In this document: positions 9,531-28,719 of the stretch, one piece after another
How positions within the stretch are numbered: the stretch's first letter is position 1
How the letters are laid out: every line of letters starts with the position of its first letter
From: a virus
Reading direction: 5' to 3' (one strand)
Length of the DNA: 43,653 nt
Virus record (IMG/VR): IMGVR_UViG_3300001919_000032
Span: 1-43,653 of that record
Translations under genes and position numbers: made by a program
The notes under the pieces: generated by a model
The model's database searches: none
What the model saw: only the letters and a program-made list of their open reading frames with translations
Told to the model about the DNA's origin: nothing

Positions 9531-10981
9531 TGGCAGGGCAGGAATATTTACTGCAGACCGTTCTTCAGCTGAGGGACAATTTGTCAGCTCCGCTGAAGGA
9601 TGTCCGCAGACGCATGAACGCGTTTGGAAGGTCGATTCGCGAGCTCAATCAGGCTTCGATGGATCTGGCCGGGGTGATCGCCAAGCCCTTCGCCATCCTT
9701 GCCGGCGCCGGCGGTTTTTCCATTAAAGGCGCGGTTTCTTCGTACCTCGAGCTGGCCGATGCGATTGACAAGGCTTCGATCCGGGCTGGAGTATCGGTTG
9801 AGGCTCTGCAGAAGCTTCGCTACGGGGCTCAGCTCTCTGGCATGACAGCCGATGAGCTCGACGGAGCGCTCACCAAGCTCACGTCCAACATGAGCAAGGC
9901 GGCCGCGGGTCAGAACGCCGACCTTGTGGCCATGTTTAAGCACCTTGGCATTGCGCTTAAGGACAGCAACGGGCATATCCGCAGCGCGGCCGATGTGATG
10001 AATAACCTCGCCCAGGCGGTGAAGAACAACGAATCGACTGCGGCGCGGATGCAGATTCTGACAGCGGCCTTTGGCGACAAGGTGGCAGCGAGGCTGATCC
10101 CGCTTCTCAAGGATGGGGCCGAGGGGCTCCAGGCTTTCGGAAAGCGAGCCGAAGAGCTGGGCCTTGTCATGTCGGCCGCGGACGTCAAGGCGGCCAACGA
10201 GTTCGGCGATCAGCTCTCCGAGCTCCAGTCGGTCACAAAAACGCTCTCTACCGCGATCGGATCCAGGCTCCAGCCGGTTCTTCAGGGCCTGATCGAGCCT
10301 ATGGAGCAGACGATCGTCAAGTGCCGGGACCTGATTGCGACCAATGTCCAGTATTTTGTGGAAGAGCTGACAAAAGAGCTGAAAGACGTCAACTGGCAGT
10401 CAATGATCCAGGGCGCGTTTGATTCGATCCGCGCTTTCACGGACTTCATTCGATCCGTTGGCGGCGTATCGACGATTCTGAAGGCTTTTGGCGTGCTGAT
10501 CGGCATGGACCTTGTGATCAAGGTCGGGGCGTTTGTGAAATCGATCGCCACAGTGATCGGTGCGCTGAGGCTCCTTGGAGTCGCGGCCATGACGAATCCT
10601 GTGGGACTTGTCCTTACGGCGCTGGCCGCCGGCATTGCGCTGGCCATCAAGTTCAAAGACACCTGGATGCCGGTGCTGGACAGCTTCCTCGACAAACTGT
10701 CCGCTGTCGGCGGTTTCCTGAAGAAGCTTTTTGGTGAAACTGAAGAGTTGTCGAGCCGTGGGAACAGGCTCTCCGACAGCTACGGCAGGCTTCCTGCGGG
10801 TTTCAGGGGCGTGGACGAAGGCGTGGTGGCAGGCAACGGCAGAGTGACCGCCCAAAGTGAAGTGCGCCTTCGCATCCAGACGGATAAGGGAACAACGGTT
10901 AGGACAGAGGGCGTTGCGTCGCGCGGTCCGATGTCGCTTACGACCGATTACAGCTATGACGCGATTCCGGGGACTGATTGA
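9527..10981 (+). CDS. Tape measure protein
   Basis: 484 aa, Ala/Leu-rich and helical, with a hydrophobic central segment. It follows the chaperone pair, which is the canonical position. Confidence 0.8.
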   Translation: MMAGQEYLLQTVLQLRDNLSAPLKDVRRRMNAFGRSIRELNQASMDLAGVIAKPFAILAGAGGFSIKGAVSSYLELADAIDKASIRAGVSVEALQKLRYGAQLSGMTADELDGALTKLTSNMSKAAAGQNADLVAMFKHLGIALKDSNGHIRSAADVMNNLAQAVKNNESTAARMQILTAAFGDKVAARLIPLLKDGAEGLQAFGKRAEELGLVMSAADVKAANEFGDQLSELQSVTKTLSTAIGSRLQPVLQGLIEPMEQTIVKCRDLIATNVQYFVEELTKELKDVNWQSMIQGAFDSIRAFTDFIRSVGGVSTILKAFGVLIGMDLVIKVGAFVKSIATVIGALRLLGVAAMTNPVGLVLTALAAGIALAIKFKDTWMPVLDSFLDKLSAVGGFLKKLFGETEELSSRGNRLSDSYGRLPAGFRGVDEGVVAGNGRVTAQSEVRLRIQTDKGTTVRTEGVASRGPMSLTTDYSYDAIPGTD

Positions 10982-12198
10982 TGGCTACTTTTGAAGAAAA
11001 GCTGTGGCCGGCGTCTTTCCGGGGCGTGCCGTTCAACGCAACGGCGAGCACGCTCACGATTGGCCGCCGGACGCATGTGTTTGAATACCCGCAGCGCGAC
11101 AAGCCCTTTGTCGAAGACTTGGGCAAAAGCGCTCGCGAAATCACTCTGACAGCGGTTTTCGCGGGCCCCGAGTACATCACTGGCATGAACCGCCTGCTTG
11201 AGGCGATGGAGCAGGAGGGCTCCGGCGTCCTCGTCCACCCAATGCTTGGCAGCATGACGGTGACGCCCAAAGCAACGACCAAGGTCACTTATTCGACGAC
11301 CAAGCTCGGGTTTTCGTCCGCCGATCTCGTTTTCGTCGAATCCGGGGACTATGTTTTCCCGACTTCCTCGAATGATACGGCGGCGGTAAGCGCCTCGGCC
11401 TCTGAAACCCTGAAGCAGAGCGCACTGGACGCATTTCTCGACAAGTTTGATCTTTCCGGCGCCCAGGACTTCGTGAAGGCGGCGGTTACGGGAAATCTTT
11501 CGAAGTTCTTCGAGCTCAGCGACTACAAGGAGCTCTGCCGGCTGTTTTCCGTGTCCGACGAGATGTCTGAGCTGTCGGCCAAGGCAATTTCCCTTGTGAG
11601 CAGAGATGTCGAGGTGTTTGCGAAGACCGTCGCCGACTCCTTCGGGTATTCGAGGCTGGCTTACAGCGTCAACAACTGGAGGCGTGTGACGAGGCTTTTG
11701 AGCCGCCTGGTGAGATCGGACGGCATGAACAACGATTACCAGACGGGGCAGGTTTCCGATGAAGAAGCGAGAACGACGGCTCAGTCTTCAACCCTCCAGT
11801 CTCTTGCTCGTCAGACGCTGCTTGCTGAGGCCGTTTCGGCGTCGGCTAAGGTTGGCGGTGATGAAGATACGGCAGAAGGCGGCATAGCCTACGAGGACAT
11901 GATCGCGGTGCGCGACCAGGTTCTTGCGGCGCTCGACGCTGAGATGCTGGAGACCGAGAGCGACGATGTTTATCTGGCGCTGGAAGACGCCCGATCGGCG
12001 GTGTCTGATGACATGACGACTCGGGCTCAGGACTCGGCTCGTTTAATATCTGTTACACCTCCGGACGTACAGCCGGCCCTGGTGGTTGCCTATAATTTTT
12101 ATGAGGATGCCGATCGGGAGAAAGAGATCATCGACCGCAACGGCATTCGGCACGGCGGGTTCGTCCCCGCCAGGGAGTTGAAGCTTCTGAGCCGGTGA
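10978..12198 (+). CDS. DNA circulation protein-like (Mu gp43/gpN-like) baseplate/tail protein
   Basis: The N-terminus WPASFRGVPF...HVFEYPQRDKPFVEDLGKSAREITLTAVF matches the DNA circularisation N-terminal domain. Confidence 0.75.
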   Translation: MMATFEEKLWPASFRGVPFNATASTLTIGRRTHVFEYPQRDKPFVEDLGKSAREITLTAVFAGPEYITGMNRLLEAMEQEGSGVLVHPMLGSMTVTPKATTKVTYSTTKLGFSSADLVFVESGDYVFPTSSNDTAAVSASASETLKQSALDAFLDKFDLSGAQDFVKAAVTGNLSKFFELSDYKELCRLFSVSDEMSELSAKAISLVSRDVEVFAKTVADSFGYSRLAYSVNNWRRVTRLLSRLVRSDGMNNDYQTGQVSDEEARTTAQSSTLQSLARQTLLAEAVSASAKVGGDEDTAEGGIAYEDMIAVRDQVLAALDAEMLETESDDVYLALEDARSAVSDDMTTRAQDSARLISVTPPDVQPALVVAYNFYEDADREKEIIDRNGIRHGGFVPARELKLLSR

Positions 12199-12203
12199 CC
12201 GCC

Positions 12204-12572
12204 ATGAAAAAGATCCTTGCTGTTGTTGCTGCTGTGCTTGGGGTTTGCTTAAGCGTCAACGCATTTGCGTATCATCGTGTTGCAAAAGAATGGGTTGATG
12301 CAGAAGGAGTAAAGCATCAGGAACTTATCTTGGTTCCAGATCCTCCAGGAACAAAGTATGCCCCTTATAAATTGACGCGCGAGCAGGAGCTTAAAGCGGA
12401 TTATGAGCGGAAATTAAAAGAAATACAGGAAGAGCAACGCTGGCGCGATGAACACAATAAGTTCGTAGAAAACGGAACAATAGGAAAATACACCAATTAC
12501 TATAACCCTGTAACGAAGCAGAGTATTTTGGTAGATCCCAAAACCGGTACTATCAAAATAGATAAGCCTTAA
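12204..12572 (+). CDS. Secreted/periplasmic moron protein with signal peptide
   Basis: MKKILAVVAAVLGVCLSVNAFA looks like a signal peptide. The gene is AT-richer than its neighbours and has its own terminator downstream. Confidence 0.6.
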   Translation: MKKILAVVAAVLGVCLSVNAFAYHRVAKEWVDAEGVKHQELILVPDPPGTKYAPYKLTREQELKADYERKLKEIQEEQRWRDEHNKFVENGTIGKYTNYYNPVTKQSILVDPKTGTIKIDKP

Positions 12573-12590
12573 TGGGATTGGTTTAAATAG

Positions 12591-12623
12591 GAGCACCTCA
12601 AGAAATTGGGGTGCTTTTTTTTT
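12591..12623 (+). terminator. Intrinsic terminator after the moron gene
   Basis: Stem AGCACC / GGTGCT followed by a T9 run that abuts the ATG at 12624. Confidence 0.65.
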
Positions 12624-13745
12624 ATGGCACCAGAAAACGAAGTCACACTATATATAAACGGTCGTAAATATATTGGCTGGCGGTCTGTTCAAATTGATGT
12701 CAGTGTGAATTCTTTAGTTCGCGTATGCGAACTTGGTGCGGCACGAACTTCCAATAGAACGAGTCTTTGCGATGGCATAGAAGAAGGCGCTGATGCTGTT
12801 GTTAAAATAGGTTCTGATACTGTTTTGACAGGATATGTCGTTAGCAAAAAAGTTAGCTATTCTGAAAACAGCACACAGATCCAAATAACGATTAAAAGTA
12901 AAACCGTTGATTTGGAAGAATGCATGATTCCGCCAAAAAAACCAAATCAATGGAAAAATGCGCGGATTTCTTCAGTAATAAAAACGGTGGCTGGGTATTA
13001 CGGAATAGAAACAATTGATAATGGCTTAGCTAAAAACGCTCGGAATATTGATTTTTCTACCCACGAAACTATAGGCAAGGGGATCGTAAACCTGCTTAAA
13101 GCTGACAGCCTTCTTATAAATGATGATGAATTTGGTGATTTAGTTATATGCGATATTGGTCAAAATGGTGACGCTCATGACCAACTTATATATGGTAAAA
13201 ATATTTTGAGTGGGTCAAGGGACCACGATATATCAAAGGTTTTCAAAACATATGTTGTTATTGGGCAAGGCACAGATCCGGAAAGTAAAAGCAAAAATCC
13301 GGCAAATTCTTTGTCTGAGCCTTCGGAAAATGCAGAGTTTCCTAGAAATAGGGTCTTGGTTACTGAACAATCAGGAAATAGAACAAGAAAAGAGCTTAAA
13401 ACTAGAGCAGATAATTTAAAGTTCAATTCTGTAGGAAATGCGGATGTTTTAACCTATCAAGTGCAGGGTTGGCGGCAAAGCAACGGGGATTTGTGGAAAC
13501 AAAACATGAATGTCGTAGTAAAAGACCCAATGCTTGACATTAGCCAAACGCTCTTGGTTTCAAAAATTAGCTATAAGCTTGATCAAGACGGATCTACGAC
13601 AACGATGGTGCTGAAATCCCATTGGGCGTTTGCGGTGACGGATCTACCAGATGCCGAAAAAGGCAAAACGACCAAAAAAACTAAAACGAAGCAGGCCAAG
13701 AAAGGAACGACATTCCTTGCCAAAGCGGGGTCCGGCAAACTATGA
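12624..13745 (+). CDS. Baseplate hub protein (Mu gp44/gpP-like, late-control-D-like)
   Basis: The N-terminus EVTLYINGRKYIGWRSVQIDVSVNSL is typical of this family. It sits between the gp43-like and gp45-like genes and is AT-rich. Confidence 0.65.
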   Translation: MAPENEVTLYINGRKYIGWRSVQIDVSVNSLVRVCELGAARTSNRTSLCDGIEEGADAVVKIGSDTVLTGYVVSKKVSYSENSTQIQITIKSKTVDLEECMIPPKKPNQWKNARISSVIKTVAGYYGIETIDNGLAKNARNIDFSTHETIGKGIVNLLKADSLLINDDEFGDLVICDIGQNGDAHDQLIYGKNILSGSRDHDISKVFKTYVVIGQGTDPESKSKNPANSLSEPSENAEFPRNRVLVTEQSGNRTRKELKTRADNLKFNSVGNADVLTYQVQGWRQSNGDLWKQNMNVVVKDPMLDISQTLLVSKISYKLDQDGSTTTMVLKSHWAFAVTDLPDAEKGKTTKKTKTKQAKKGTTFLAKAGSGKL

Positions 13746-14275
13746 GCAACGGTCTGATTGATCTGGTCACGAGAGGAGTGCTGCTGGCCAAGAACGCTGC
13801 CCGGAAGATGCGGACGGTGCAGGTGCAGCTCTTCGCCGATGACCTGAGGGACGATGTCGAGCATTTTGAGCCGTATGGATTCACCTCTGAGGCCAAGACA
13901 GGCGCCGAGGTGCTTGCCGCATCCCTTGCCGGAGACAGAGAGCACACGATCGCATTCTGCATCACCGACCGACGCTACCGCCCCACGGGGCTCAAGGACG
14001 GCGAAGTTTGCGTTTTCGATGATCTGGGGCGAAAGGTCTATTTCTCCCGATCCGGGATCGTTGTCGAGGGCAAGGATTCGCCGGTGACAGTAAAGAGCTC
14101 TGGATCTGTGACGATTGACGCGCCCGAGACCACCATCACGGGCAAGCTGATTGTTACCGGGGACATTCAGGGCAAGGCTCAGGTCTACGACAGCAATGGC
14201 CGCCTGCAGGCCATCCGCGACACATACAACAGCCACACCCACAACGGCGGCTCGGCTCCCGATCAGAAGATGTGA
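13742..14275 (+). CDS. Baseplate assembly protein V / central spike (Mu gp45-like)
   Basis: 177 aa. ...VQVQLFADDLRDDVEHFEPYGFTS... and the C-terminal ...DTYNSHTHNGG are typical of gpV/gp45 spikes. Confidence 0.8.
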   Translation: MSNGLIDLVTRGVLLAKNAARKMRTVQVQLFADDLRDDVEHFEPYGFTSEAKTGAEVLAASLAGDREHTIAFCITDRRYRPTGLKDGEVCVFDDLGRKVYFSRSGIVVEGKDSPVTVKSSGSVTIDAPETTITGKLIVTGDIQGKAQVYDSNGRLQAIRDTYNSHTHNGGSAPDQKM

Positions 14276-16348: not shown

Positions 16349-16962
16349 CGACGCAGGAAGAGTACTCCCGGATGCTGAAGCAGTTGCTTCCTCCTGGTCC
16401 AGCCTGGCCGAGGGGCGACGCCACATCCCTCATGGGCATGATGATCGAGGTTTGGGCCGAGGAGTTCAGCAGCGTTGATTCCCGAGTGCGGACGCTGATG
16501 CGAGAAGCCGACCCTCGCTTCGCGGTGGAGACGTTTGAGAACTGGCTGGACGACTGGGGATTGCCTGACGACTGCATTCGAGCCTGGTCCAGTGCCAATC
16601 AGACGACGCTGCGCACACTGCTCATGTACAAGATCAAGAACATCGGCAGGCAGGATCGGTCCTACTTTGTCGAGCTTGCAGAGATGTTCGGATACCGAAT
16701 CGTCATCGATGAGTTCCGCCAGCACTCCGTGCAGTCAACCTCAATGGACGCTGTCTGCGGGGAGAACTGGCGGCACATCTGGCGGGTCGACGTAATGACA
16801 GGGGCCGGGTCGGTTATGGGGTACCACAACACGCTGGGGCCGGTGAACGAGGCGCTCGCCTGGTGGGGCGACCGACTTATTGAGTGCCTGATCAAGCGGT
16901 ACAAGCCAGCTCATACCGACTTGTATTTCGGCTACTACAGCTTTGAAGGAGACAACGCGTAA
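16339..16962 (+). CDS. Mu gp48-like tail protein (DUF2313-like)
   Basis: The N-terminus ...EEYSRMLKQLLPPGPAWPRGD... is the hallmark of this family. Confidence 0.8.
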   Translation: MELTTQEEYSRMLKQLLPPGPAWPRGDATSLMGMMIEVWAEEFSSVDSRVRTLMREADPRFAVETFENWLDDWGLPDDCIRAWSSANQTTLRTLLMYKIKNIGRQDRSYFVELAEMFGYRIVIDEFRQHSVQSTSMDAVCGENWRHIWRVDVMTGAGSVMGYHNTLGPVNEALAWWGDRLIECLIKRYKPAHTDLYFGYYSFEGDNA

Positions 16963-17729
16963 TGGACAGAATCTTTCTTTCTGGCGCCGTGCAGAACGAG
17001 CCCAACATTCCCGATGACGTCGACCCGGGGTACCCGACTGATGGGTCGTCCGGTGGTGGGGTAGCGTCAACCATCCCTGGGGCGATCTGGTACAACGCGG
17101 TCATGATGGAGCTAATAAATGCCATCAAGGGCGGCGGCATCACGCCGGACCGGCACGACAATGCCCAGCTTGACGCAGCTATCAAAGCCCAAATCAAGTC
17201 TGTGAATCAGGCTCTGACAGACGCTGTTGCCCAGATCCAGGCAAAAGTTGCTCAAGTTGAAGTGGTCCCGCCCGGAGCAATCATGTTCTTCCCGACTTCT
17301 TCTTCTCCGAACGCAAACTGGCTTGTATGCAACGGCCAGGCGGTGAGCCGTTCGGCCTACGCGAACCTGTTCTCTGTGATCGGGACCAAATATGGCTCGG
17401 GTAACGGGAGCACGACATTCAATCTGCCATATCTGATCGACAAGACGGTGTGGGGCGGGCAGAGCAATGTAGGCGAGCAGAGAAGCGCGGGGCTTCCGAA
17501 CATAACTGGCGGCATCAAGGTCGCGGTTGACTCCGGCGGCGAACGCAATGCATGGGGCGCGGCTTATTACGGCGGAGCATACGACCCGAATTTCAGGCAT
17601 ATGAACGAGGGATATCACGAGTGGGGCAATGAAATCGTGTTCGATGCCTCTCGCTCCAACGGAATTTATGGACGGTCAGGAACAGTGCAGCCTCCGGCTC
17701 TCGTTTTGCTCCCCTGCATTCATATTTAG
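16962..17729 (+). CDS. Tail fibre protein with tail-collar domain
   Basis: PPGAIMFFP...NWLVCNGQAVSRSAYANLFSVIGTKYGSGNGSTTFNLPYL matches the phage tail collar domain. Confidence 0.8.
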   Translation: MDRIFLSGAVQNEPNIPDDVDPGYPTDGSSGGGVASTIPGAIWYNAVMMELINAIKGGGITPDRHDNAQLDAAIKAQIKSVNQALTDAVAQIQAKVAQVEVVPPGAIMFFPTSSSPNANWLVCNGQAVSRSAYANLFSVIGTKYGSGNGSTTFNLPYLIDKTVWGGQSNVGEQRSAGLPNITGGIKVAVDSGGERNAWGAAYYGGAYDPNFRHMNEGYHEWGNEIVFDASRSNGIYGRSGTVQPPALVLLPCIHI

Positions 17730-17747
17730 GCTTTTATTAGAAAGACA

Positions 17748-17784
17748 AGCCCCGCCCAGACGGCCATCTGAGCGGGGCTTTTTA
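17748..17784 (+). terminator. Intrinsic terminator-like hairpin (copy 2)
   Basis: AGCCCCGC ccagacggccatctga GCGGGGCT followed by T5. Confidence 0.7.
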
Positions 17785-17978: not shown

Positions 17979-17986
17979 AGGTAAAG

Positions 17987-18826
17987 ATGAAGAGACTTTA
18001 TTACTCAGACGCGTCTGACACGCCGCCTTCTCCGCCTAAGAATCCGATCACAAATCAGTATCCGCAGGATGGAAACAGAGCGAAAAAGCAGATGCCGACA
18101 GTGATCGGGGCCTACTGGTACCACATGATCACCGAGGAGTTCATGGCGGTGATCGAACAGGCCGGGCTGGAGCCGTCGCTTACAAATCTGCATCAGCTGG
18201 CTGATGTCTTTGCCGACTTCAAAACGCGGGCTGCAGGGGCCGAGGCTTACAAAACAGCGGCTGAAGCGGCCGCGACCCGGGCTGAAACGGCTGCCAACGG
18301 CGTTGTCACTGAAACAGCATCAAAGATTCAAGAAATCGATGCTGAAGGTGATAAGCAGGTCAAAGCCGTCCAGGACGCCGGGTCGACTGTTTCGTCTGAC
18401 ATCGAAGCGGGGAAAACAGCCCTGCAGAGCAAGCTCACAGAGCTTATTGCACAGCTGGATGCAGAGGGAGGAACCGAGGCCGCGTACGTGAAGCAGCAGG
18501 CGCAGGACATCCTCGATCAGATCACAGCCTCTGAATCTAATGCCAAAACATACGCTGAAAATGCTGCGGCCAGCGCGTCCTCTGCTGTGACCACGGTTTC
18601 GGATGGAAAACAGGCGATAACAGATCTTCAGGCGGCTGCAACAGCGGCAGTACGGGCGCAGCAGACCACTTCTGTTAAAGCTGTGAGCGACGCTCAGAGC
18701 TCTGCGCAAACTGCTGTTGCATCCGCTCAGTCAACGGCTGTTTCTGCAGTCAAATCTCAGGAAACCGCGAGCATCCAGGCGATTGAGACAGAGATGGAGA
18801 CTATCGACCTCGGAGAGCTGTCATGA
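17987..18826 (+). CDS. Tail fibre shaft-like protein (Ala-rich coiled coil)
   Basis: The internal ATG at 17987 has an SD (agagg). The N-terminus ...PTVIGAYWYHMITEEFMAVIE... resembles fibre attachment domains. The rest is an Ala/Thr/Gln-rich repeat. The stop overlaps the next start. Confidence 0.6.
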   Translation: MKRLYYSDASDTPPSPPKNPITNQYPQDGNRAKKQMPTVIGAYWYHMITEEFMAVIEQAGLEPSLTNLHQLADVFADFKTRAAGAEAYKTAAEAAATRAETAANGVVTETASKIQEIDAEGDKQVKAVQDAGSTVSSDIEAGKTALQSKLTELIAQLDAEGGTEAAYVKQQAQDILDQITASESNAKTYAENAAASASSAVTTVSDGKQAITDLQAAATAAVRAQQTTSVKAVSDAQSSAQTAVASAQSTAVSAVKSQETASIQAIETEMETIDLGELS

Positions 18827-19185
18827 AATCCAAGTATCTGCAGCTTCGCGGCGGAACGACAGCCAAGAATGAAGCTTTCACCGGCAAAAGCAGGGAGCTG
18901 ACGGTCGACACGGACGAGAAGCGCCTTCGGGTCCATGACGGCACAACGGCCGGCGGCCATCCCGTAGCGAAAGCGTCCGAGATTCCAACAAAGACAAGCG
19001 AGCTTGAGAACGATGCTTACGAGACGAAGACCAGTCTCAGCAAGCTATCACAACTGACGGATGACGTGGGCTACTGGACGAAAACAGGTCTCACAAAACT
19101 GTCCCAGCTCACAAACGACAGCGGGTATCAGACCGGGCATTGCACCTACTGCACCTACTGTTCGTACTGCACAAACTGCACATGA
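18823..19185 (+). CDS. Fibre-tip-like protein 1: Mtd-like N-domain + LSQLTxDxGY repeats + Cys-triad tail
   Basis: LQLRGGTTAKNEAFTGKSRELTVDTDEKRLRVHDGTTAGG resembles the N-terminal domain of the Bordetella phage Mtd tropism determinant. The C-terminus is HCTYCTYCSYCTNCT, with 5 Cys spaced every 3 residues. Confidence 0.75.
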   Translation: MKSKYLQLRGGTTAKNEAFTGKSRELTVDTDEKRLRVHDGTTAGGHPVAKASEIPTKTSELENDAYETKTSLSKLSQLTDDVGYWTKTGLTKLSQLTNDSGYQTGHCTYCTYCSYCTNCT

Positions 19186-19193
19186 GGCTTTAG

Positions 19194-19706
19194 ATGTCTT
19201 TAAAGGAAATCTTGTGGAAGGGCGGAACGGCATCGCAAAACGATGCGTACACGGGAGACTCAGGCGAGATCACGATCGACACGGACAGCCACCGCATTCG
19301 CGTTCACGATGGCGAGACGCCAGGCGGCACGGCTCTGGCACTCGTGAGCGACATCCCGACAAAGCTCTCGCAATTGACGAATGACGCGGGAGCATGGGAG
19401 AAGGGGGCGCTCACGGCATTGTCCCAGCTGACGGATGACGTGGGCTACTGGAAGAAGGCGGATTTAACAAAGATTTCACAGCTTACTAACGACTCTGGAT
19501 TTCAAACCGGGCACTGTTCGTATTGCTCTTACTGCTCGTACTGTTCACAGTGCAATAACTGCCTCAATTGCAACACGGTTCAATGTACGACCGTGAACTG
19601 CACAACCGTAAATTGCACAACCGTTAAGTGTTCTGTTTATACAAACTGCAGTTACTGCAGCAACTGCAGCAACTGTGATTGCAACTGCAATTGTTGTGAC
19701 GCATAA
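19194..19706 (+). CDS. Fibre-tip-like protein 2 with 64-residue Cys-repeat tail (19 Cys)
   Basis: Same N-domain and repeats as protein 1. Tail: HCSYCSYCSYCSQCNNCLNCNTVQCTTVNCTTVNCTTVKCSVYTNCSYCSNCSNCDCNCNCCDA. Confidence 0.75.
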   Translation: MSLKEILWKGGTASQNDAYTGDSGEITIDTDSHRIRVHDGETPGGTALALVSDIPTKLSQLTNDAGAWEKGALTALSQLTDDVGYWKKADLTKISQLTNDSGFQTGHCSYCSYCSYCSQCNNCLNCNTVQCTTVNCTTVNCTTVKCSVYTNCSYCSNCSNCDCNCNCCDA

Positions 19707-19715
19707 GGGGCGGTC

Positions 19716-20207
19716 ATGGTTAAGAAAATTCTTTTAAAGAGAGGATCCACCGCCGCCACGGGAGCATACGCTGGGAAATCCCGCGAGGTCACCGTCAACA
19801 CAGACAAAAAAATCCTTGTTGTGCATGACGGAGTAACAGTGGGCGGAACGAGTCTTGCCAGGCTTTCAGAGTTGCCTACAAAACTATCTCAGCTGACAGA
19901 GGACAGCGGAATCTGGACAAAAAATGCTCTTACTCTTGCGAGCCTTACAGACGATGTTGGGTACTGGAAAAAGTCTGATCTAACAAAAGTCTCACAGCTC
20001 ACTAACGACAACAAATACAAGACCGCGCACTGCTCCTATTGCAGCCATTGCACGTACTGCTCTAACTGCGGGCGCTGCAACAACGTTCAATGCAGCCAGG
20101 TTCAATGCGGTCAGGTTCAATGCAATCAGGTGCAGTGTTCGCAATGTTCAGGGCAATGCACAAACTGTAGCAATTGTAGTGGCAGCAGTGACTGCTGCGA
20201 CAACTAG
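19716..20207 (+). CDS. Fibre-tip-like protein 3 with 59-residue Cys-repeat tail (16 Cys)
   Basis: Same architecture as proteins 1 and 2. Tail: HCSYCSHCTYCSNCGRCNNVQCSQVQCGQVQCNQVQCSQCSGQCTNCSNCSGSSDCCDN. Confidence 0.75.
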   Translation: MVKKILLKRGSTAATGAYAGKSREVTVNTDKKILVVHDGVTVGGTSLARLSELPTKLSQLTEDSGIWTKNALTLASLTDDVGYWKKSDLTKVSQLTNDNKYKTAHCSYCSHCTYCSNCGRCNNVQCSQVQCGQVQCNQVQCSQCSGQCTNCSNCSGSSDCCDN

Positions 20208-20216
20208 GGGGGATTT

Positions 20217-21107
20217 ATGAAAAAAATAGCAGCGTGCGCCCTTGAAGACCACAATCATTTTGTCAATATTTTCGTTACTGACGAGGCCATGAGTGTTGCG
20301 CTATTTTCGCCGTATAGCGGGGATCAGGACGCGATCTCTTCTGACCAGTGCGGAACCTTTTTGAATCAGCACAACACATCCCCCTTCATGCTCAATAACG
20401 GAATCGTTGTGGCGGGAGCAGACCTCAAGGAAGGTCTGGCAGGCAAATTCATCTGCATTGGAAAAACTACGTATTTTTCCAACCCTGTTGCCGCAAAAAA
20501 TGCTTCTGTAGAGTGTTATGGGAGCGGGGAAATCACGGATCGTCGCTCCATGGCGTGGTTTGTAAAAAATGGATGGCTTTCTGCCCCGACCACTCGTAAC
20601 CCGATGAGCTACTTCACGAAAGCAGGGACGATGCGCACTTTGCAGCTTGAACGCATGCAGCTTGCGGTACAGCTCATTATGCCGTTTGCCTCTGAGTCGG
20701 TGACGAGCGACTACAACAGCATTCAGTTCAACTACTCTCCCACATACGGGTATCGTTGCAACCTTCCTGTTGAAGAATTCACGCTTGAACAGCTCCAGAA
20801 TCACGGGAACGGATGGTCTCCGAACCCGGTTTTGGCTCTTTCTGGTCCTGAATCGACCGAGGAAGACAAAGATGCGGAATTCTCTGTCTCCATGTCATGG
20901 GAAGACGGAACAGCAATTGAACACGATTCTGAAATTTATATTGATTCCACCGGTGGATACGTTCCTCTGCGCAGGCTTGTACTGAGCAATGGAGTGGGTA
21001 AATTCCGCATCCGGGCTCTGGGTCTCAAGGCAGGCGAGTCGTTCAAGGTGAAGGTGGGATGGCGGTATTTCACTGGTGCGGCTGAAAAGACGGTGCTCGT
21101 TGTATGA
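20217..21107 (+). CDS. Hypothetical protein of the fibre/rSAM cluster (possible Ig-like C-terminus)
   Basis: 296 aa, with an SD (gggggg) upstream and an ATGA overlap with the first rSAM gene. The C-terminus ...GVGKFRIRALGLKAGESFKVKVGW... looks like a beta-sandwich. Confidence 0.55.
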   Translation: MKKIAACALEDHNHFVNIFVTDEAMSVALFSPYSGDQDAISSDQCGTFLNQHNTSPFMLNNGIVVAGADLKEGLAGKFICIGKTTYFSNPVAAKNASVECYGSGEITDRRSMAWFVKNGWLSAPTTRNPMSYFTKAGTMRTLQLERMQLAVQLIMPFASESVTSDYNSIQFNYSPTYGYRCNLPVEEFTLEQLQNHGNGWSPNPVLALSGPESTEEDKDAEFSVSMSWEDGTAIEHDSEIYIDSTGGYVPLRRLVLSNGVGKFRIRALGLKAGESFKVKVGWRYFTGAAEKTVLVV

Positions 21108-21997
21108 TCCGGCGCCTGAATATCGTACTGGGTGCGGCATGCAATAGGCATTGCTCCTACTGTTGCCAGGCGGCTCCCGCAGACAGGTTGTCATGTGGAA
21201 AAACAGACTGGTCGGGTCTCAGAAAAAAGCTTCGCTTTTATAACGAGAATGGCGCCTTCAGAAAGCTTGAGCGCATCAGTTTCTGGGGCGGAGAACCCAT
21301 GCTTTATTGGGGCGTTGTTAAGGCGCTCTACCAGGTTCTGTGTGACGACGGCGTTTATCCAGACTCTATTTACCGGGTTGCTACAAACGGGGATCTTATA
21401 AACGAAGATTACGTGCAGTTCGCCAACAGCACCCCAGGGTGGTTGACAACGGTGAGTTGGCACGATGGTTCTATATCAGAGAGCCAGTGGTCAGTTCTGA
21501 GACGTCTTGATAACTGCTTTATAACGGGTCTGGTCACGAGCCGGTGGAGGGATGAAATTCCCGCCATGAGAGATAAATATGACTCTCTTGGTCTGAGTCT
21601 GCCGGTACAGCTATGGCCAGTCCACTTTGTGGGCCAGTGCTCTGAGGATGACAAACTCACCGCTAAAAGCGTTGATGATGCCCTTGAGTACATTCGAATC
21701 CTTGTTGCCCATGCATCCAGGCGCGGGCGAGAGAGGCCTGATTGTGGGGACGAGTCGGTTCTAACAGTTGATTTACATGGCCGTGAATACCTGTGCCAAC
21801 ACAATCCGTCGCCTGAGACATTGAGTTCTCATAGTCGACTGTACCGGGCTGAAACCGTCAGAAAAGGATGTCGCGAATGCGTTGCCTGGGACCATTGCGG
21901 AGGCGGATGTTTTCTTACTTCAAATCGAAAAGCGGAGTGCCGGTTCTACCGGGAATACGTTCGGCTAGGGAGATCTTTGAATGAAACTGCGTCTTAA
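21104..21997 (+). CDS. Radical SAM enzyme with SPASM domain (1)
   Basis: CNRHCSYC is the CX3CX2C cluster motif at residues 13-20, and FWGGEPMLYW is the SAM-binding GGEP motif. The C-terminal C-X13-G-X4-C ... CRECVAWDHCGGGC (CX2CX5CX3C) ... C gives the full 7-Cys SPASM signature. Confidence 0.85.
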   Translation: MIRRLNIVLGAACNRHCSYCCQAAPADRLSCGKTDWSGLRKKLRFYNENGAFRKLERISFWGGEPMLYWGVVKALYQVLCDDGVYPDSIYRVATNGDLINEDYVQFANSTPGWLTTVSWHDGSISESQWSVLRRLDNCFITGLVTSRWRDEIPAMRDKYDSLGLSLPVQLWPVHFVGQCSEDDKLTAKSVDDALEYIRILVAHASRRGRERPDCGDESVLTVDLHGREYLCQHNPSPETLSSHSRLYRAETVRKGCRECVAWDHCGGGCFLTSNRKAECRFYREYVRLGRSLNETAS

Positions 21998-23219
21998 TGT
22001 TAGGGAGCGAGATGGATCGCGCCACGTATGGGAATACGACAACGTGACGAACGAACTGTGGCGAGAGGGCGTACTTCTTGATCTGTCGAAAGATGAGCGC
22101 TTATCACAGTATATGAGCGGCCAGACTCACAGAGCACAGGTTTTCTCCGACAGCAAGAGCAAGGATCTCTACGATCTGAGAATACAGTTAGGTCTTCGCT
22201 GCAACATGCATTGTCGTTATTGCGCGCAGTCGGATCGAGCTTTAGAGAAGGCGTGCTGGGGGCCCAAGGACGTACCCGCGTTCATCGCAAAACTCAAGGC
22301 CGGCAACGTCAATGTGACTGGCGTCATCGAACTCTGGGGTGGAGAGCCTTTTGTTTATTGGAAGACTATTAAAAATCTTGTCCCTCAGTTGCGCGAAATG
22401 TATCCCAACGTCCGGTTTGCCATGATCACAAATGGGACGCTTCTAACTGAAGACAAGATTTCATTCTGCGAGAAATATCGTATTGATCTTACATTTAGTC
22501 ATGATGGACAGGGCTATCGGCTCCGCGGTGCGGATCCCCTGGACGATCCAAAAATGGTTGATCTGTGGAGGCTTGCGTTCTCAAAACTTCGCTGCAACAT
22601 CAATTGCGTTCTATCCCCGGCAAATACAGATATAGAGCAGATCATTGAACACATTCATTCCCGACTCGGGGCTGTGCCTATCAACTTCGAAGGCATCATG
22701 ACCCATGTAGGAGTGACAGATAAAGAATTGATGTTCTCAGACAAGCAGTTGCTCACGCTCCAAAAAAACATTTTTACAGCAATGACATCCGGACCGTGGG
22801 CTAAATTTCCGGCGCTGGAGCAGCAGTGCCGCAGCCTTATCCAGATGCTAGTGAATCGAAAGAGACTGAACCCGAGAGCAGTTAAGTGCTGCATGCATTC
22901 TCCTGATAATGCTGCAGTTAATCTCAACGGAGATGTACTTTCTTGCCACGATCATTGCACACCGGACAAGTTTGTCGGGAGGATAGAGGACCTGGAGGGC
23001 GTGGATATCTCTCGCTGTTTTAAACCATGGTGTGAGAGGCCGGAGTGCCGCAAATGCCTCGTTCTGTCCATGTGCCGCGGCGCCTGCCCGCAGATTGAGG
23101 GGCTGGCAAGGACGCTCACATGCAAAAACGAGGGTGCTTACAAGTTTGCTGTCTTCCAGGCTGTTATCTGGCTGCTGTTTGGCCTGACGCTGGAGTCGTA
23201 TGCACCGGTGGAGGGCTGA
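21981..23219 (+). CDS. Radical SAM enzyme with SPASM domain (2), with ~70-aa N-terminal extension
   Basis: Carries CNMHCRYC (CX3CX2C), LWGGEPFVYW, C-X12-G-X4-C ... CRKCLVLSMCRGAC ... C. The C-terminus FAVFQAVIWLLFGLTL is hydrophobic. Confidence 0.85.
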   Translation: MKLRLNVRERDGSRHVWEYDNVTNELWREGVLLDLSKDERLSQYMSGQTHRAQVFSDSKSKDLYDLRIQLGLRCNMHCRYCAQSDRALEKACWGPKDVPAFIAKLKAGNVNVTGVIELWGGEPFVYWKTIKNLVPQLREMYPNVRFAMITNGTLLTEDKISFCEKYRIDLTFSHDGQGYRLRGADPLDDPKMVDLWRLAFSKLRCNINCVLSPANTDIEQIIEHIHSRLGAVPINFEGIMTHVGVTDKELMFSDKQLLTLQKNIFTAMTSGPWAKFPALEQQCRSLIQMLVNRKRLNPRAVKCCMHSPDNAAVNLNGDVLSCHDHCTPDKFVGRIEDLEGVDISRCFKPWCERPECRKCLVLSMCRGACPQIEGLARTLTCKNEGAYKFAVFQAVIWLLFGLTLESYAPVEG

Positions 23220-23251: not shown

Positions 23252-23278
23252 GCGGCCGCCCGAATAGGCGGCTTTTTT
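23252..23278 (+). terminator. Intrinsic terminator after the rSAM genes
   Basis: GCCGCC cgaata GGCGGC followed by T6. Confidence 0.7.
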
Positions 23279-23326
23279 AGTACCCCGACTTTGGCTAAGG
23301 GTGCGCTTCCGATAGGAGTGGCTGGA

Positions 23327-25799: not shown

Positions 25800-25847
25800 A
25801 ACGATTTTTTGTACAGAAAAACAATCTGTTGCGAGGAATTAGCGTTC

Positions 25848-27200
25848 ATGAGAGTGGCAAACCGAATGACTGAAAAGCGGCTGAAAGCCTTGACAGCAGA
25901 CGCTTCGTGCGGTGTTGTGCCGGGGCTTTATGTGTCTGTCAGGAGGCTCAAGGACGGTTCATACGCGAAGTATTTCCTGCTTCGTGAGCGCAGCCTGAAG
26001 CGTGTATTCACACTAGGTAAATTCCCTGAGATGACCTTGGCCGAGGCATTCGAAAAAGGAAGGTTGTGGAAAAAGAAGATTGCTGAGGGGATTGACCCGG
26101 CCAAGGAAGAGAAGGCCGCGATGGAGGCGTTGCGTCCTGCAGACCCGGGCAAAGAAGAGAACGTTCTGACTTTCGAAAAGCTGATATGGAAGTGGATCGA
26201 GTTCAATGAAAAGCGCGGCCGGTGGAAGAACGCGAACAAATCCCGGGATCAGGTTTGGACGGGGTTCTTCAGGAATCACATCCCGCAGGAGATCCGCGAC
26301 TGCCCGGTTGTGGATTTGACTCCGCAGATGTTTTGCGACGCGTTAGGAGAGAAGTGGCGTACCATGATTGACACGCCGGAGCGCATTCTCGGTGACGCGA
26401 AGCGGGCGATCGATTGGGCGATACGCTCCGAGATGGTCCCACCGATGGTGAACCCGTGCCAGGTTGTCGACGGGCGCCTTGGAGATCTGCTTCCGCTTGA
26501 TCGTCCAGAAGGAGGCCATGAGCCCGCTCTGCCGCCAAAACGCATGCCAGAGTTTTTCAAGGCTCTGATGAAGCTTGTTCCGGTGAGCCAGACGGCCAGA
26601 TGTCTCGCGTTTGCCATCCTAACGTCGGCTCGCAACACGACAGCCCGCGAGGCCACCTGGGGGGAGATACAGAAAGACGACAACGACCAGTGGCTACATG
26701 TCATTCCCCGGACTCGCATGAAGGTTAAGAGCGAGAAGATTCCGTTTGATCGAAAGACGCCGCTTTGTGAAGAGGCGGTTCAGTTGATCAGGACGGCGCC
26801 GCGGATGGGAAATGATCCGGATGACTATATCTTCCCGAATGTCAACAAGGGGCATAGCTCGCCGTTTACGCGCGACGCCGTTCGTGCGCTTATCAAGCGC
26901 ATGCATGACAAGCAGCGAAAAATCGACGGCATCGGCTGGGTGGATCCTGATCAGTTCCATGCGAAGACCGGCAAGCCCCGCATAGTGACGCTTCACGGCC
27001 TCGCCCGAGCGACGTTCAACACTTGGGCCAAGGATGCCAAGGGATACGGCCACAAGCCGTTCTCGCGCGATTTAAGGGAGAGTTGCCTCGATCACCGAAA
27101 CGAGTCCTACCAGTGTGCCTACGACCGGGAGCAGGCTCTGGGGGACATGAGGGAGGTCTATGACGCCTGGGGAAAGTTCTGTGCTTCTTTATGCCGCTAG
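25848..27200 (+). CDS. int: Tyrosine integrase (P4-type, N-terminal arm-binding domain)
   Basis: ...LKALTAD...VPGLYVSVRRLKDGSYAKYFLLR...LGKFPEMTLAEAFEKG is arm-binding-domain-like. The C-terminus has HGLARATF and a terminal Tyr region. The gene is adjacent to the tRNA fragment. Confidence 0.85.
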   Translation: MRVANRMTEKRLKALTADASCGVVPGLYVSVRRLKDGSYAKYFLLRERSLKRVFTLGKFPEMTLAEAFEKGRLWKKKIAEGIDPAKEEKAAMEALRPADPGKEENVLTFEKLIWKWIEFNEKRGRWKNANKSRDQVWTGFFRNHIPQEIRDCPVVDLTPQMFCDALGEKWRTMIDTPERILGDAKRAIDWAIRSEMVPPMVNPCQVVDGRLGDLLPLDRPEGGHEPALPPKRMPEFFKALMKLVPVSQTARCLAFAILTSARNTTAREATWGEIQKDDNDQWLHVIPRTRMKVKSEKIPFDRKTPLCEEAVQLIRTAPRMGNDPDDYIFPNVNKGHSSPFTRDAVRALIKRMHDKQRKIDGIGWVDPDQFHAKTGKPRIVTLHGLARATFNTWAKDAKGYGHKPFSRDLRESCLDHRNESYQCAYDREQALGDMREVYDAWGKFCASLCR

Positions 27201-27962
27201 TTGTTCTGTATATTTTTCTTTTTGGCTCCAAACTATGGGGATTGTCTGATAGTTATTTAATGGATTTATTACGGTGTCTTCATTAGCGGCAATTTCTTGA
27301 TCATTTATTACTACATAAAGGCGGCTTTCTTCTTTTCTGTTTATTTTTGTGTCTGTCCAAGACCACAAAATTTGCTGGGTTATGCTCTTGTTAGGGGTGT
27401 TCATAATCCTTAAAAGCCTTTCAGGATTATTTTTTGATTTTGGAATTGCAAAATCAAATTTATAAGATAATGAAGATCTGCCAATTAACTGAATATTTGG
27501 TATATATCGCACATTATTTATATCAAGCCAGTCTTTTACATCGTCAAAAAAGAAAGAAAACGCTTGTTCCTTTGATGTGTAAAACAGATCACTAACACTC
27601 AGCATTGCTTGAATAAGGTTGTTCATATGCAAGCCAAGCGAGTTTTTATCGCCAACATTAACTTTTGTAATCAACTCTCCATCTTTTTCTGTAATGCCGA
27701 AACCGCGAAGAGTTACTTCAAGCAAAGATTTCCGTTTCCCAGAGCTTAAATCAACGCCAGAGCACAACAGGTCGTTTAATATCTCTCCAGCGTCTGTTAA
27801 ACAATATTCATTTTTATTTTTAGTAATATAAATTTGAATTTTATCATTGTGCCGGTCTAAAAAAGGAGTGGTGATTTCTGTATATTCACCATGGCTGCGC
27901 TGAGCACTTTTTAGTTGAGATTTAAGCCAGTCTATATATTCATTTGCGAAGTCTTCCATCAA
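27189..27962 (-). CDS. Hypothetical protein, DUF1828/DUF1829-like (AT-rich cargo gene)
   Basis: 257 aa; ...EITTPFLDRHNDKIQIYITKNKNEYCLTDAGE... resembles DUF1828 N-domains. One sampled 60-nt line (27421..27480) counted about 23% GC; the rest of the gene looks similarly AT-rich by eye. Confidence 0.45.
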   Translation of the reverse strand: MMEDFANEYIDWLKSQLKSAQRSHGEYTEITTPFLDRHNDKIQIYITKNKNEYCLTDAGEILNDLLCSGVDLSSGKRKSLLEVTLRGFGITEKDGELITKVNVGDKNSLGLHMNNLIQAMLSVSDLFYTSKEQAFSFFFDDVKDWLDINNVRYIPNIQLIGRSSLSYKFDFAIPKSKNNPERLLRIMNTPNKSITQQILWSWTDTKINRKEESRLYVVINDQEIAANEDTVINPLNNYQTIPIVWSQKEKYTEQLAA

Positions 27963-28414
27963 AATAACTCCTCATTTCCAGAAATATCTTCTGCAAATAA
28001 AACCGCTCTTACATTGAAGCGCTTCATAAAATCTTCTAAACTTTTTTTGGGATCATCTGGATCTCGTATCCATTTAACTGGCAAAGCAACTTTGTCGCCA
28101 TATTTTTCAGAATATAAATGTATGTGTGGCGCGCCTATTTCTGTGCCATCGGGGTTTCTGTGTTCTCCATACATATCTAACCTAGCAAGAACTGTTGATG
28201 TTCTTACACGCAATTGAGCTTTTATTTTTAGAATTATTCTTTTTTGTGAAATATCAAAAATAAATTTCTCTTTTAAGCTCTTTGATTCCAAGGGAACAAT
28301 GATCGGTTCTTTCTCTAAGTGCTTGGTGGTAAAAAGCTCAGACGTTGTCCTCGTCTTTTCCGTCTCCAAAAGAACTTTAGCTCTTTCGTCAGATATAACC
28401 GCTTTTTTCATCAT
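27959..28414 (-). CDS. Hypothetical protein co-transcribed with 27189..27962
   Basis: 151 aa, ATGA-coupled to the downstream gene. Conserved-looking core: LDMYGEHRNPDGTEIGAPHIHLYSEKYGDKVALP. Confidence 0.5.
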   Translation of the reverse strand: MMKKAVISDERAKVLLETEKTRTTSELFTTKHLEKEPIIVPLESKSLKEKFIFDISQKRIILKIKAQLRVRTSTVLARLDMYGEHRNPDGTEIGAPHIHLYSEKYGDKVALPVKWIRDPDDPKKSLEDFMKRFNVRAVLFAEDISGNEELF

Positions 28415-28497
28415 TTAAGCCACCACCCAGACGTTTCTTAAGTTTCGTACGTTGGATGGTAGCTCTCTGCGGCGCTATACGACAAGTTATTTGAGAC

Positions 28498-28719
28498 TTA
28501 TACAGAGCTTGACGAACCAACAGATCTCGCCCACCTTTTAAGATCATCAACCTTAAACCTCACACACTTTGATGAGAGATAAACAGGCCTAGGAAAGCTA
28601 GGCTCATTCTTTACCTTTTTCCAAACTGTGCTCACACCGATGGAGAGCATGGCCGCAGCCTGCTTGACGTCGACCATCAGGATGCCGAAGACCGGCTCCA
28701 CATTTTTGCGCCTTCTCAT
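28498..28719 (-). CDS. AlpA-family HTH protein / excisionase candidate
   Basis: 73 aa; ...VKQAAAMLSIGVSTVWKKVKNEPSFPRPVYLSSKCVRFKVDDLKRW is AlpA/Xis-like. Confidence 0.6.
   Translation of the reverse strand: MRRRKNVEPVFGILMVDVKQAAAMLSIGVSTVWKKVKNEPSFPRPVYLSSKCVRFKVDDLKRWARSVGSSSSV

Follow-up and report, generated by a model that had tools for sequence, protein, structure and literature searches.

Cysteine-repeat fibre proteins of Sutterellaceae gut prophages and two linked radical-SAM/SPASM enzymes: candidates for enzymatic cross-linking of a phage fibre tip

The DNA analysed (the window) is IMG/VR virus record IMGVR_UViG_3300001919_000032, positions 1 to 43,653 nucleotides (nt), a temperate myovirus genome with terminase, sheath, integrase, ParA-like and DnaB-like genes. 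Three consecutive open reading frames (ORFs) of its plus strand, taken from the ORF listing and the raw sequence, encode small fibre-type proteins (P1, P2 and P3) that end in tails of regularly spaced Cys; a partner gene (ORF296) and two genes of radical S-adenosylmethionine (rSAM) enzymes with SPASM motifs (rSAM1 and rSAM2) follow. The tails are, with good probability, substrates of these enzymes. That they are distal fibre tips covalently cross-linked by the two enzymes, most likely through Cys thioethers, is put at an even balance, and thioether formation as the main chemistry at that balance or slightly short of it. The six genes are:

P1: 18823..19185, + strand; Mtd_N protein of 120 amino acids (aa), Cys tail HCTYCTYCSYCTNCT at 19138..19182, triads only.
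P2: 19194..19706, + strand; Mtd_N protein of 170 aa, tail from H107 (19512).
P3: 19716..20207, + strand; Mtd_N protein of 163 aa, tail from H105 (20028).
ORF296: 20217..21107, + strand; partner protein of unknown function with a C-terminal immunoglobulin-like (Ig-like) beta-sandwich.
rSAM1: 21104..21997, + strand; radical-SAM/SPASM enzyme of 297 aa.
rSAM2: 21981..23219, + strand; radical-SAM/SPASM enzyme of 412 aa.

P1, P2 and P3 share one order of parts: Mtd_N domain, three SQLTNDxGY-type repeats, and a tail that opens at a conserved G-H-C junction. Mtd_N (PF18454) was matched at 46.0 bits (P1), 33.4 bits (P2) and 33.8 bits (P3), all above the gathering threshold of 26.3; each protein also matched PHROG 9648 ('tail protein'), and P2 is identical to database protein P0018. 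The first 105–107 residues are free of Cys and the first Cys is residue 107 (P1), 108 (P2) and 106 (P3), so that the tails start in register. Computed Cys spacings: P1, 3333; P2, 333333-5555-6-333-222-1; P3, 33333-5555-3-4-3-3-6-1; Cys counts: 5, 19 and 16, respectively. In P2, six triad (C-x-x) intervals (19515..19568) are followed by the four pentads CNTVQ CTTVN CTTVN CTTVK C (19569..19631) and by a distal part of C-x-x and C-x units with the end NCCDA; in P3, five triad intervals are followed by the pentads CNNVQ CSQVQ CGQVQ CNQVQ C (20076..20138) and by mixed units with the end DCCDN, the last codon of which closes at 20204. The tails and coordinates given in a first-pass annotation of this DNA were all found to be exact. 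Cys makes up 28–36% of the tails versus 0.81% of 11 structural ORFs of the same phage, and periods of 9 nt and 15 nt were detected in the DNA of the tail region (Tandem Repeats Finder); the Cys-free N-terminal part, this content, the conserved Cys columns described below and the DNA periods together argue that the pattern is not due to chance.

In the AlphaFold monomer model of P3 the Mtd_N domain is confident (residues 1–50) and tail residues 98–163 have a predicted local distance difference test score of ~40; a tail without a predicted autonomous fold would be expected of a core like that of a ribosomally synthesised and post-translationally modified peptide (RiPP), and fits a structure that depends on modification, assembly or metal. 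No Pfam family was matched by the long tails of P2 and P3 at an expectation value (E) ≤ 10, metallothionein, zinc-finger and pentapeptide-repeat families included, nor any NCBIfam model by the tails at E ≤ 10, SCIFF precursor models included; one weak PHROG match of unknown function (phrog_31552) was obtained. The idea of a pentapeptide repeat, with V-(N/Q)-C-(T/N/S)-x mimicking A-(D/N)-L-(S/T)-x and four pentads forming one beta-helix coil, was dropped, given runs of anywhere between 2 and 6 pentads and the lack of a match to Pfam Pentapeptide.

A search of 5.8 billion proteins with P3 gave 77 related clusters, almost all from gut metagenomes (named sources: Parasutterella muris and Mesosutterella sp. 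AGMB02718); the homologue clusters with conserved grammar are from Sutterellaceae gut prophages. Three classes were recognised, most phages having each class once and in a constant order: the P1 type (119–120 aa, 14 clusters) with four triad intervals and nothing further; the P2 type with six triad intervals, then CTTVN-type pentads; the P3 type with five triad intervals, then C(N/S)QVQ-type pentads. Across 51 aligned homologues the Cys positions of the first triads show little or no variation, and Tyr is at least 90% conserved at two positions (Y108 and Y114); the conserved non-Cys positions of the tails are Ser or Thr after Cys, Tyr or His before Cys, Val in the pentads, and the acidic end. 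A count of exactly four pentads is correct in the window (P2 and P3) and fails as a rule for the family: the longest run in 79 sequences was 0 (13 sequences), 1 (1), 2 (15), 3 (23), 4 (25), 5 (1) or 6 (1). The most constant non-Cys residue of the pentad is Val or Ile at position 4 (83%); position 5 is Gln, Asn or Asp in 71% and Lys, His or Arg in 27%, with Asp in 19 of 242 pentads. Since PapB acts on an Asp or Glu carboxylate C-terminal to Cys (PMC9413430), the likening of the C-X3-(N/Q) units to freyrasin is formal only, position 5 being an amide or a basic residue. Most long tails terminate in C-D-C-(G/C)-D-(D/N/A), and the acidic residues suiting PapB chemistry sit there.

The distal tail of P2 (19632..19703 of the window) was compared with those of prophages L001 and L062 (94–99% identical in this module): CSNCSNCDCNCNCCDA, CSNCDCNCDCNCNCCDA and CSNCDCNCNCCDA differ by whole C-x-C or C-S-N units gained or lost, which suggests rapid repeat slippage at the presumed fibre tip.

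Proteins with Cys triads were also encountered outside the family. In two IMG/VR contigs (L060, 6740..7366 and 7566..8207; L061, same coordinates) and in a Candidatus Peribacteria metagenome-assembled genome (MAG; L064, 983..1519), 20–35 consecutive C-S-x triads (NCSYCSYCSNCSNC) precede a conserved C-terminal domain of ~70 aa (IGCQNHTIEKWL); no ORF with CX3CX2C was found in the 8–14 kb examined and no rSAM gene within 6–7 kb, and these (C-S-x)n proteins were set aside as unrelated. Also rejected were L059 (Mtd_N domain alone, no Cys tail), L066 (chance match in Streptomyces) and L065 (Enterobacteriaceae MAG contig, 2428 bp), a degenerate 9-nt-type repeat giving C-T-H and C-V-Q triads in six frames and most likely an assembly or low-complexity artefact.

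For gene linkage, 57 tail-bearing loci were gathered from public contigs, IMG/VR and GTDB genomes. Homologues of ORF296, rSAM1 and rSAM2 were present in 43/43 of the loci that reach at least 3.6 kb past the tail genes; loci without the three downstream genes end early at contig ends, the sole exception being L059. The tight linkage of the tails to two downstream radical-SAM/SPASM genes, seen in the window, extends to the family, and no homologous tail without rSAM genes was met among these 43 loci. An apparent loss of rSAM1 in L001 was rejected: the gene is merely uncalled by the source annotation and its frame is intact (10285..11226). The cassette was found in at least three unrelated phage backbones: it is present in Mu-like myoviruses (window, L001, L017), in L007 and L009, whose capsid protein is of SU10 type, in a prophage with a different lysis module (L011) and in the differing arrangement of L004 described below; its position is constant, in the tail-fibre module and ahead of the lysis genes. 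No protease or exporter gene was found in the cassette of the window or of the loci examined.

In L004, L005 and L006 (4714..13305) four radical-SAM genes are present, an rSAM2 orthologue plus three rSAM2-like paralogues, of which a single one lacks CX2CX5CX3C; a class I/II aminotransferase gene lies near the three tail genes. The third tail of this type has six pentads, then a Cys-free end rich in His and Asn (CTTVQYHNDSNHTND). Genes related to anaerobic ribonucleotide reduction were noted beside some cassettes: an ORF of 60–61 aa with an NRDD Pfam match directly 3' of rSAM2 (L007, 12160..12342; L009, 11630..11815), and an intein-containing NrdD with an NrdG-like activase just 5' of the cassette (L014, 1..3946); this may be coincidence or may reflect a common need for anaerobic radical chemistry.

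Both enzymes carry the cysteine motifs of radical SAM/SPASM proteins. rSAM1: CX3CX2C at 13–20, CX11GX4C at 214–231, CX2CX5CX3C at 256–269, C279; rSAM2: CX3CX2C at 74–81, CX18C at 303–322, CX2CX5CX3C at 356–369, C381; the motifs are kept in 11/11 rSAM1 and in 122–123/123 rSAM2 homologues. Against Pfam Radical_SAM (cut-off 29.5) rSAM2 scored 38.7 bits and rSAM1 26.4 bits, slightly under. rSAM1 is fast-evolving and begins at the radical-SAM core without an N-terminal extension; the extension of rSAM2 has only ~65 residues. The two share 38% identity over ~100 core residues and form two separate orthologous groups, rSAM2 (phrog_1802, E = 2e-39) being the universally conserved enzyme of the system; labels of the phrog_1802 family in GenBank and RefSeq records vary between 'anaerobic sulfatase-maturating enzyme' and 'radical SAM domain-containing protein'. 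In CteB, PapB and Tte1186, auxiliary-cluster ligands follow a 3 + 4 scheme and the open site of auxiliary cluster 1 binds a substrate Cys (PMC10177961); the Cys spacing of rSAM2 matches this scheme, and exactly seven SPASM Cys (C303, C322, C356, C359, C365, C369, C381) are conserved in its 123 homologues. The rSAM1 family has eight conserved Cys outside the radical-SAM motif, C179 included. The rSAM1 of the window is without 16 residues (NPQDRFSAFLRKSIIV) that are found in ~89% identical Mesosutterella orthologues, an in-frame deletion between core and SPASM domain.

NCBIfam scores were as follows. PapB NF047865 (cut-off 340): 72.5 bits for rSAM2, nearly full length and its best NCBIfam match, and 37 for rSAM1; SCIFF maturase TIGR03974 (cut-off 425): 52.8 and 37.3 bits; QhpD (cut-off 453): 48.7 bits; anaerobic sulfatase-maturating enzyme (anSME) TIGR03942 (cut-off 349): 48.8 bits; Cys-every-fifth CefB NF038107 (cut-off 600): 41.7 and 26.8 bits; the cyclophane models, both matched weakly: YhhB NF041707 (cut-off 445), 39 bits, and AmcB NF041718 (cut-off 425), 28 bits. 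All these scores are below cut-off, as is the further match of rSAM2 to HxsB, by far; for rSAM1 the SCIFF and PapB matches are weak. The anSME name is the GenBank label of the homologue in phage JWF (KP202971.1), and no sulfatase gene or C/S-x-P/A-x-R motif was found in any cassette examined. The closest solved structure for both enzymes was CteB 5wgg (PDB sequence search; ~30–40 bits, mainly rSAM core). The PapB comparison drawn in the first-pass annotation gains from this ranking; with all scores under the cut-offs and CteB the closest structure, rSAM1 and rSAM2 are best taken as new SPASM subfamilies with thioether formers as their nearest characterised relatives.

The gene of ORF296 (~296 aa) is invariably placed after the tail genes and before the rSAM genes. 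Sequence searches of Pfam, NCBIfam, PHROG and PDB gave no match; the model of the protein is confident only at residues 203–296, a part that matches generic Ig-like folds, and the best BFVD matches are uncharacterised phage proteins of 252–315 aa. The family has 543 representatives at E ≤ 1e-3 (50% clustering); word-indexed search gave just 6 close homologues. The protein would be a dedicated accessory or structural partner.

Homologues of rSAM2 at 30–39% identity were found in further tail-fibre modules, beside proteins with C-terminal Cys runs:

Lentibacter algarum prophage (L013): Cys-run protein of 87 aa, end NCNCNCDCQCYC; ORF296-like protein and two 2-oxoglutarate (2OG)-Fe(II) oxygenases.
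L014: fibre protein of 370 aa, end NCDCRCNCNCDGGDDSR; ORF296-like protein and both rSAM types.
L016: three proteins with NCNCNC... runs, one run directly followed by a Hint domain.
Achromobacter phage JWF: gp028, RQNCNCDCNCNCS then Hint from C308; rSAM gp030.
Ralstonia phage RSP15: ORF048 'side tail fibre', end NTNCQCGN; ORF047 ORF296-like; rSAM ORF045.

The C-x-C run, a third repeat type with Asn, Asp or Gln between the Cys and an acidic end, is common to all rSAM2-associated proteins and is the most widely shared element; in L013, L016 and JWF it takes the form N-C-N-C-D-C with few or no aromatic residues. The Cys-run proteins of L013 and L016 have just 76–87 aa; in JWF, L014 and RSP15 the run closes long fibre proteins of 290–483 aa. 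A Hint domain (Pfam PF05203) starts with the Cys immediately after the run in JWF (L067, 3676..5127) and L016 (5651..6478), and a P2-class protein of Parasutterella type (L025, 6063..6995) has an extension after CNCDCADDS that is Hint-like by eye. This position would imply autoproteolytic release, or thioester chemistry, exactly where the Cys run ends; the run is always at the mature C-terminus, any further sequence being a Hint or Hint-like self-cleavage domain. The cassette thus appears as a modular system of Cys-run tip, ORF296 and one to four rSAM enzymes, sometimes with a Hint domain or 2OG oxygenases, that spreads between unrelated backbones in gut, soil and marine bacteria.

In L013 (5425..7001), directly 5' of the rSAM2 homologue, the two 2OG-Fe(II) oxygenase-like genes (weak PF13759 matches) lie on either side of the gene of the 87-aa protein; in this aerobic host they may complement or replace the second enzyme with oxygen-dependent chemistry, and hydroxylation of Asn or Asp by them is a guess. 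Aerobic hosts in the wider family are Achromobacter, Ralstonia and Lentibacter. The Ralstonia jumbo phage RP12 was not counted as a member, its rSAM cluster being distant and without a Cys-run protein; this cluster (L069, 505..7230) comprises three radical-SAM genes, a 295-aa protein and a Cys-free, His/Tyr-rich protein of 125 aa (HTHNYYDYYW..HTHYSPDGSY), and may be a different phage rSAM/substrate pair.

The following mechanism is proposed for the substrates, the bond type and the benefit. P1, P2 and P3 would be small fibre-tip proteins, with Mtd_N serving for docking or trimerisation, and the two co-transcribed SPASM enzymes would cross-link the tails within the cytoplasm of the host, either ahead of fibre assembly or in its course. 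rSAM2 at least would form thioethers from Cys sulfur to carbon, of the sactipeptide/ranthipeptide type, with the substrate thiolate bound at the open iron of auxiliary cluster 1; the acceptors would be neighbouring Asp, Asn, Gln or Thr, through carbons of their side chains or backbone, or else the C-terminal residue. rSAM1, or the extra paralogues in other phages, would probably act on the (H/Y)-C-(S/T) triads and on the pentads. The outcome would be a rigid, redox-insensitive and protease-resistant distal tip where disulfides fail (reducing cytoplasm, anoxic gut). The gene context lends support: the tail genes follow baseplate, collar-fibre and fibre genes, with frames overlapping or closely spaced. 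The general form of the proposal, that phages use dedicated SPASM rSAM enzymes for multiple cross-links (thioethers, possibly C–C) in their own fibre tips, has chances that are about equal either way.

The division of labour between two enzymes and two repeat types, suggested earlier, receives weak support from enzyme number: single-enzyme loci (L013, L016, JWF and RSP15; second type) have C-x-C runs only, and wherever triads and pentads occur, two or more enzymes are encoded; L014, with C-x-C runs and both enzyme types, is contrary, and the sample is small.

Several points weigh against enzymatic thioether cross-linking. No invariant acceptor residue can be named in the tails, and pentad position 5 is basic in 27% of cases, while PapB requires a carboxylate (PMC9413430); the chemistry is extrapolated over a large distance, both enzymes being far under every curated cut-off; and no RiPP recognition element (RRE) was detected. 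SPASM enzymes also make C–C and C–O links, epimerise, and oxidise Cys to formylglycine, and C-x-x-C and C-x-C are classical metal- and Fe–S-binding motifs. The (C-S-x)n proteins of L060, L061 and L064 indicate that Cys triads per se need no rSAM enzyme. Many of the 43 linked loci are near-duplicates of few lineages, so that the linkage amounts to ~8–10 independent observations.

By analogy, the system would work most like ranthipeptide/sactipeptide maturation and QhpD; it is not a member of these families, every curated family threshold that was tested having been failed. With PapB and freyrasin it shares a SPASM enzyme with the 3 + 4 scheme of auxiliary-cluster Cys and a substrate rich in Cys at regular intervals; PapB accepts Cys-Xn-Asp for n = 0–6 and is also able to form its link with the C-terminal residue (PMC9413430, PMC12373016), a tolerance that the conserved C-D-C-(G/C)-D-D ends would suit. 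It differs in that the substrate is a fibre protein of 120–170 aa encoded in a phage tail module, no leader/RRE pair is recognised, and the repeated Cys-X3-Asp/Glu of a PapB precursor is replaced by C-x-x-V-(Q/N/K), with Gln, Asn or Lys in place of Asp or Glu at position 5. In common with CteB, SCIFF and sactipeptide systems the substrate is Cys-rich, and Ser or Thr adjoining Cys could be acceptors, cf. the Cys–Thr link of thermocellin; rSAM1 and rSAM2 are, however, without an N-terminal RRE, and SCIFF precursors have ~45 aa and six Cys. The best functional analogy is QhpD, which installs several intra-protein Cys thioethers in QhpC, a structural subunit that stays in a larger assembly (PMC10114670): a protein rather than a free peptide is cross-linked, although substrate and context are unrelated and no quinone cofactor is involved here. 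As to Bordetella phage BPP-1 Mtd, the N-terminal ~40 residues are the same Pfam domain (35% identity over 77 residues); Mtd continues into a retroelement-diversified C-type-lectin receptor-binding domain, whereas here SQLTND repeats and the Cys tail follow.

An unlikely alternative is a metal or Fe–S ladder, in which the Cys repeats of a trimer coordinate a row of metal along the fibre axis and the rSAM enzymes are otherwise engaged or make few modifications. T4 gp37 tip His-x-His repeats bind iron, and the tips of T4 gp37 and gp12 are comparable in having a periodic residue of metal-ligand type in a distal trimeric fibre; they differ in using His rather than Cys, and the present tails have periods of 3, 5 and 2, dedicated rSAM enzymes and no sequence similarity to them. 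The thiolate spacings, an N-domain of a trimer-type fibre (Mtd_N), the register of the three tails (first Cys at 107, 108 and 106), a tail without its own fold in the monomer model and (C-S-x)n runs known elsewhere without rSAM would all be accommodated. A ladder leaves unexplained, however, the 43/43 linkage to two SPASM enzymes and the same pairing at 30% enzyme identity in other phages; metallothionein-like sites rarely conserve intervening residues so strongly, and no metallothionein or zinc-finger model was matched at E ≤ 10. Metal binding and cross-linking could coexist.

Distinctly doubtful is a C–C cyclophane or another non-thioether product (epimerisation, C–O), in which an aromatic ring is joined to the beta-carbon two residues on and the Cys are structural or metal-binding; cyclophane or other SPASM chemistry is nevertheless possible, notably for rSAM1. 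The triads suit the aromatic-X-X motif, given the conservation of Y108 and Y114, and with triceptide (three-residue cyclophane) systems the repeated aromatic-X-X of (Y/H)-C-(S/T) and a SPASM enzyme are held in common. From the eight conserved Cys outside the radical-SAM motif it follows that auxiliary cluster 1 of rSAM1 could be fully ligated, as in non-thioether SPASM enzymes such as SuiB and anSME, and weak hidden Markov model matches to YhhB and AmcB were obtained. These scores (39 and 28 bits) are, however, lower than those for thioether formers; the middle residue is always Cys; and the family-wide element is the Cys run rather than an aromatic residue, many tails of the wider family (L013, L016 and JWF among them) having few or none.

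It is very improbable that the proteins are released RiPPs, with Mtd_N and repeats as a long leader and the Cys core cleaved and freed at lysis as a bacteriocin or signal. The architecture resembles leader, core and maturases, the Cys-run proteins of L013 and L016 are short, and a conserved G-H-C junction precedes the tail; yet the cassette has no protease or exporter gene and always lies in the tail-fibre module, the N-domain is a known fibre domain, and in JWF, L014 and RSP15 the run ends long fibre proteins. Plain disulfides or a cystine knot, stapling the trimer between chains after release in the manner of the C-terminal Cys–Cys knot of collagen III and with the rSAM genes as passengers, would suit the terminal CC of P2 and P3 and the aerobic hosts of the wider family but are hardly to be expected, since the gut bacteria that carry the core family are strictly anoxic and disulfides would probably neither form nor last in them, and the strict rSAM linkage would be unexplained.

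The surroundings of the cassette in the window contain the following features:

16962..17729, + strand: collar-domain tail-fibre gene (Pfam Collar PF07484, E = 4e-19; PHROG tail-fibre families).
17984..18826, + strand: Ala-rich fibre protein of 280 aa (phrog_6859 tail fibre, E = 2e-6).
23254..23280, + strand: terminator-like GC-rich hairpin (23254..23273) and T run (7-bp stem, 6 GC pairs, then TTTTT; consensus match only).

The module is 94–99% identical to prophages of Mesosutterella porci and Mesosutterella sp. AGMB02718. The collar-fibre gene lies 3' of Mu gp47/gp48-like baseplate genes and 5' of the cassette, an order kept in Mesosutterella prophage L001. The start ATG of P1 (18823) overlaps the stop of the Ala-rich fibre gene (18826), and the end IDLGELS of the Ala-rich protein recurs before P1 in other backbones (L007, IDLGTIE; L025, VDLGGLS); this protein is probably the shaft that docks the Mtd_N proteins. 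The terminator-like hairpin lies 35 nt past the rSAM2 stop, with holin- and lysozyme-type genes downstream, and probably closes the fibre-tip/rSAM transcription unit. Past the collar-fibre gene and ahead of the next fibre gene, a perfect-looking 15-bp GC-rich hairpin was noted (17747..17780); as a bidirectional terminator or an attenuator it may set the baseplate operon apart from the tip/rSAM unit. G+C dips to 0.45 at 12001..14000 and to 0.42 at 27001..29000 versus ~0.57 in the structural module; the latter dip is probably a moron or cargo region, as it spans a DUF1828/DUF1829 gene (27189..27962, - strand) adjoining the integrase gene (25809..27200). Comparison of the fibre/rSAM region DNA with 50,697 phage records gave only a ~100-nt collar-domain match, and a protein search with P3 for cultured relatives gave Mtd_N-domain matches only.

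Full-text literature searches gave no account of phage fibres as targets of rSAM enzymes; phage rSAM genes mentioned in candidate papers were unrelated. If the proposal is true, a structural protein of the virion would be matured by enzymes in RiPP style, the first such case and a new substrate class; the proposal would give a function to the orphan phage rSAM family phrog_1802 and a role to the 543-member ORF296 family. The rSAM enzymes may accept very long repetitive Cys substrates, which would be of interest for peptide stapling, and the proposal is testable, as variants of the system are present in the cultured phages JWF and RSP15 and in Mesosutterella lysogens in culture. Cross-linking could explain the stability of fibre tips in reducing, protease-rich anoxic habitats that lack disulfides, and, if the tails are indeed cross-linked, radical chemistry of the RiPP type would reach from secreted peptides to virus particles.

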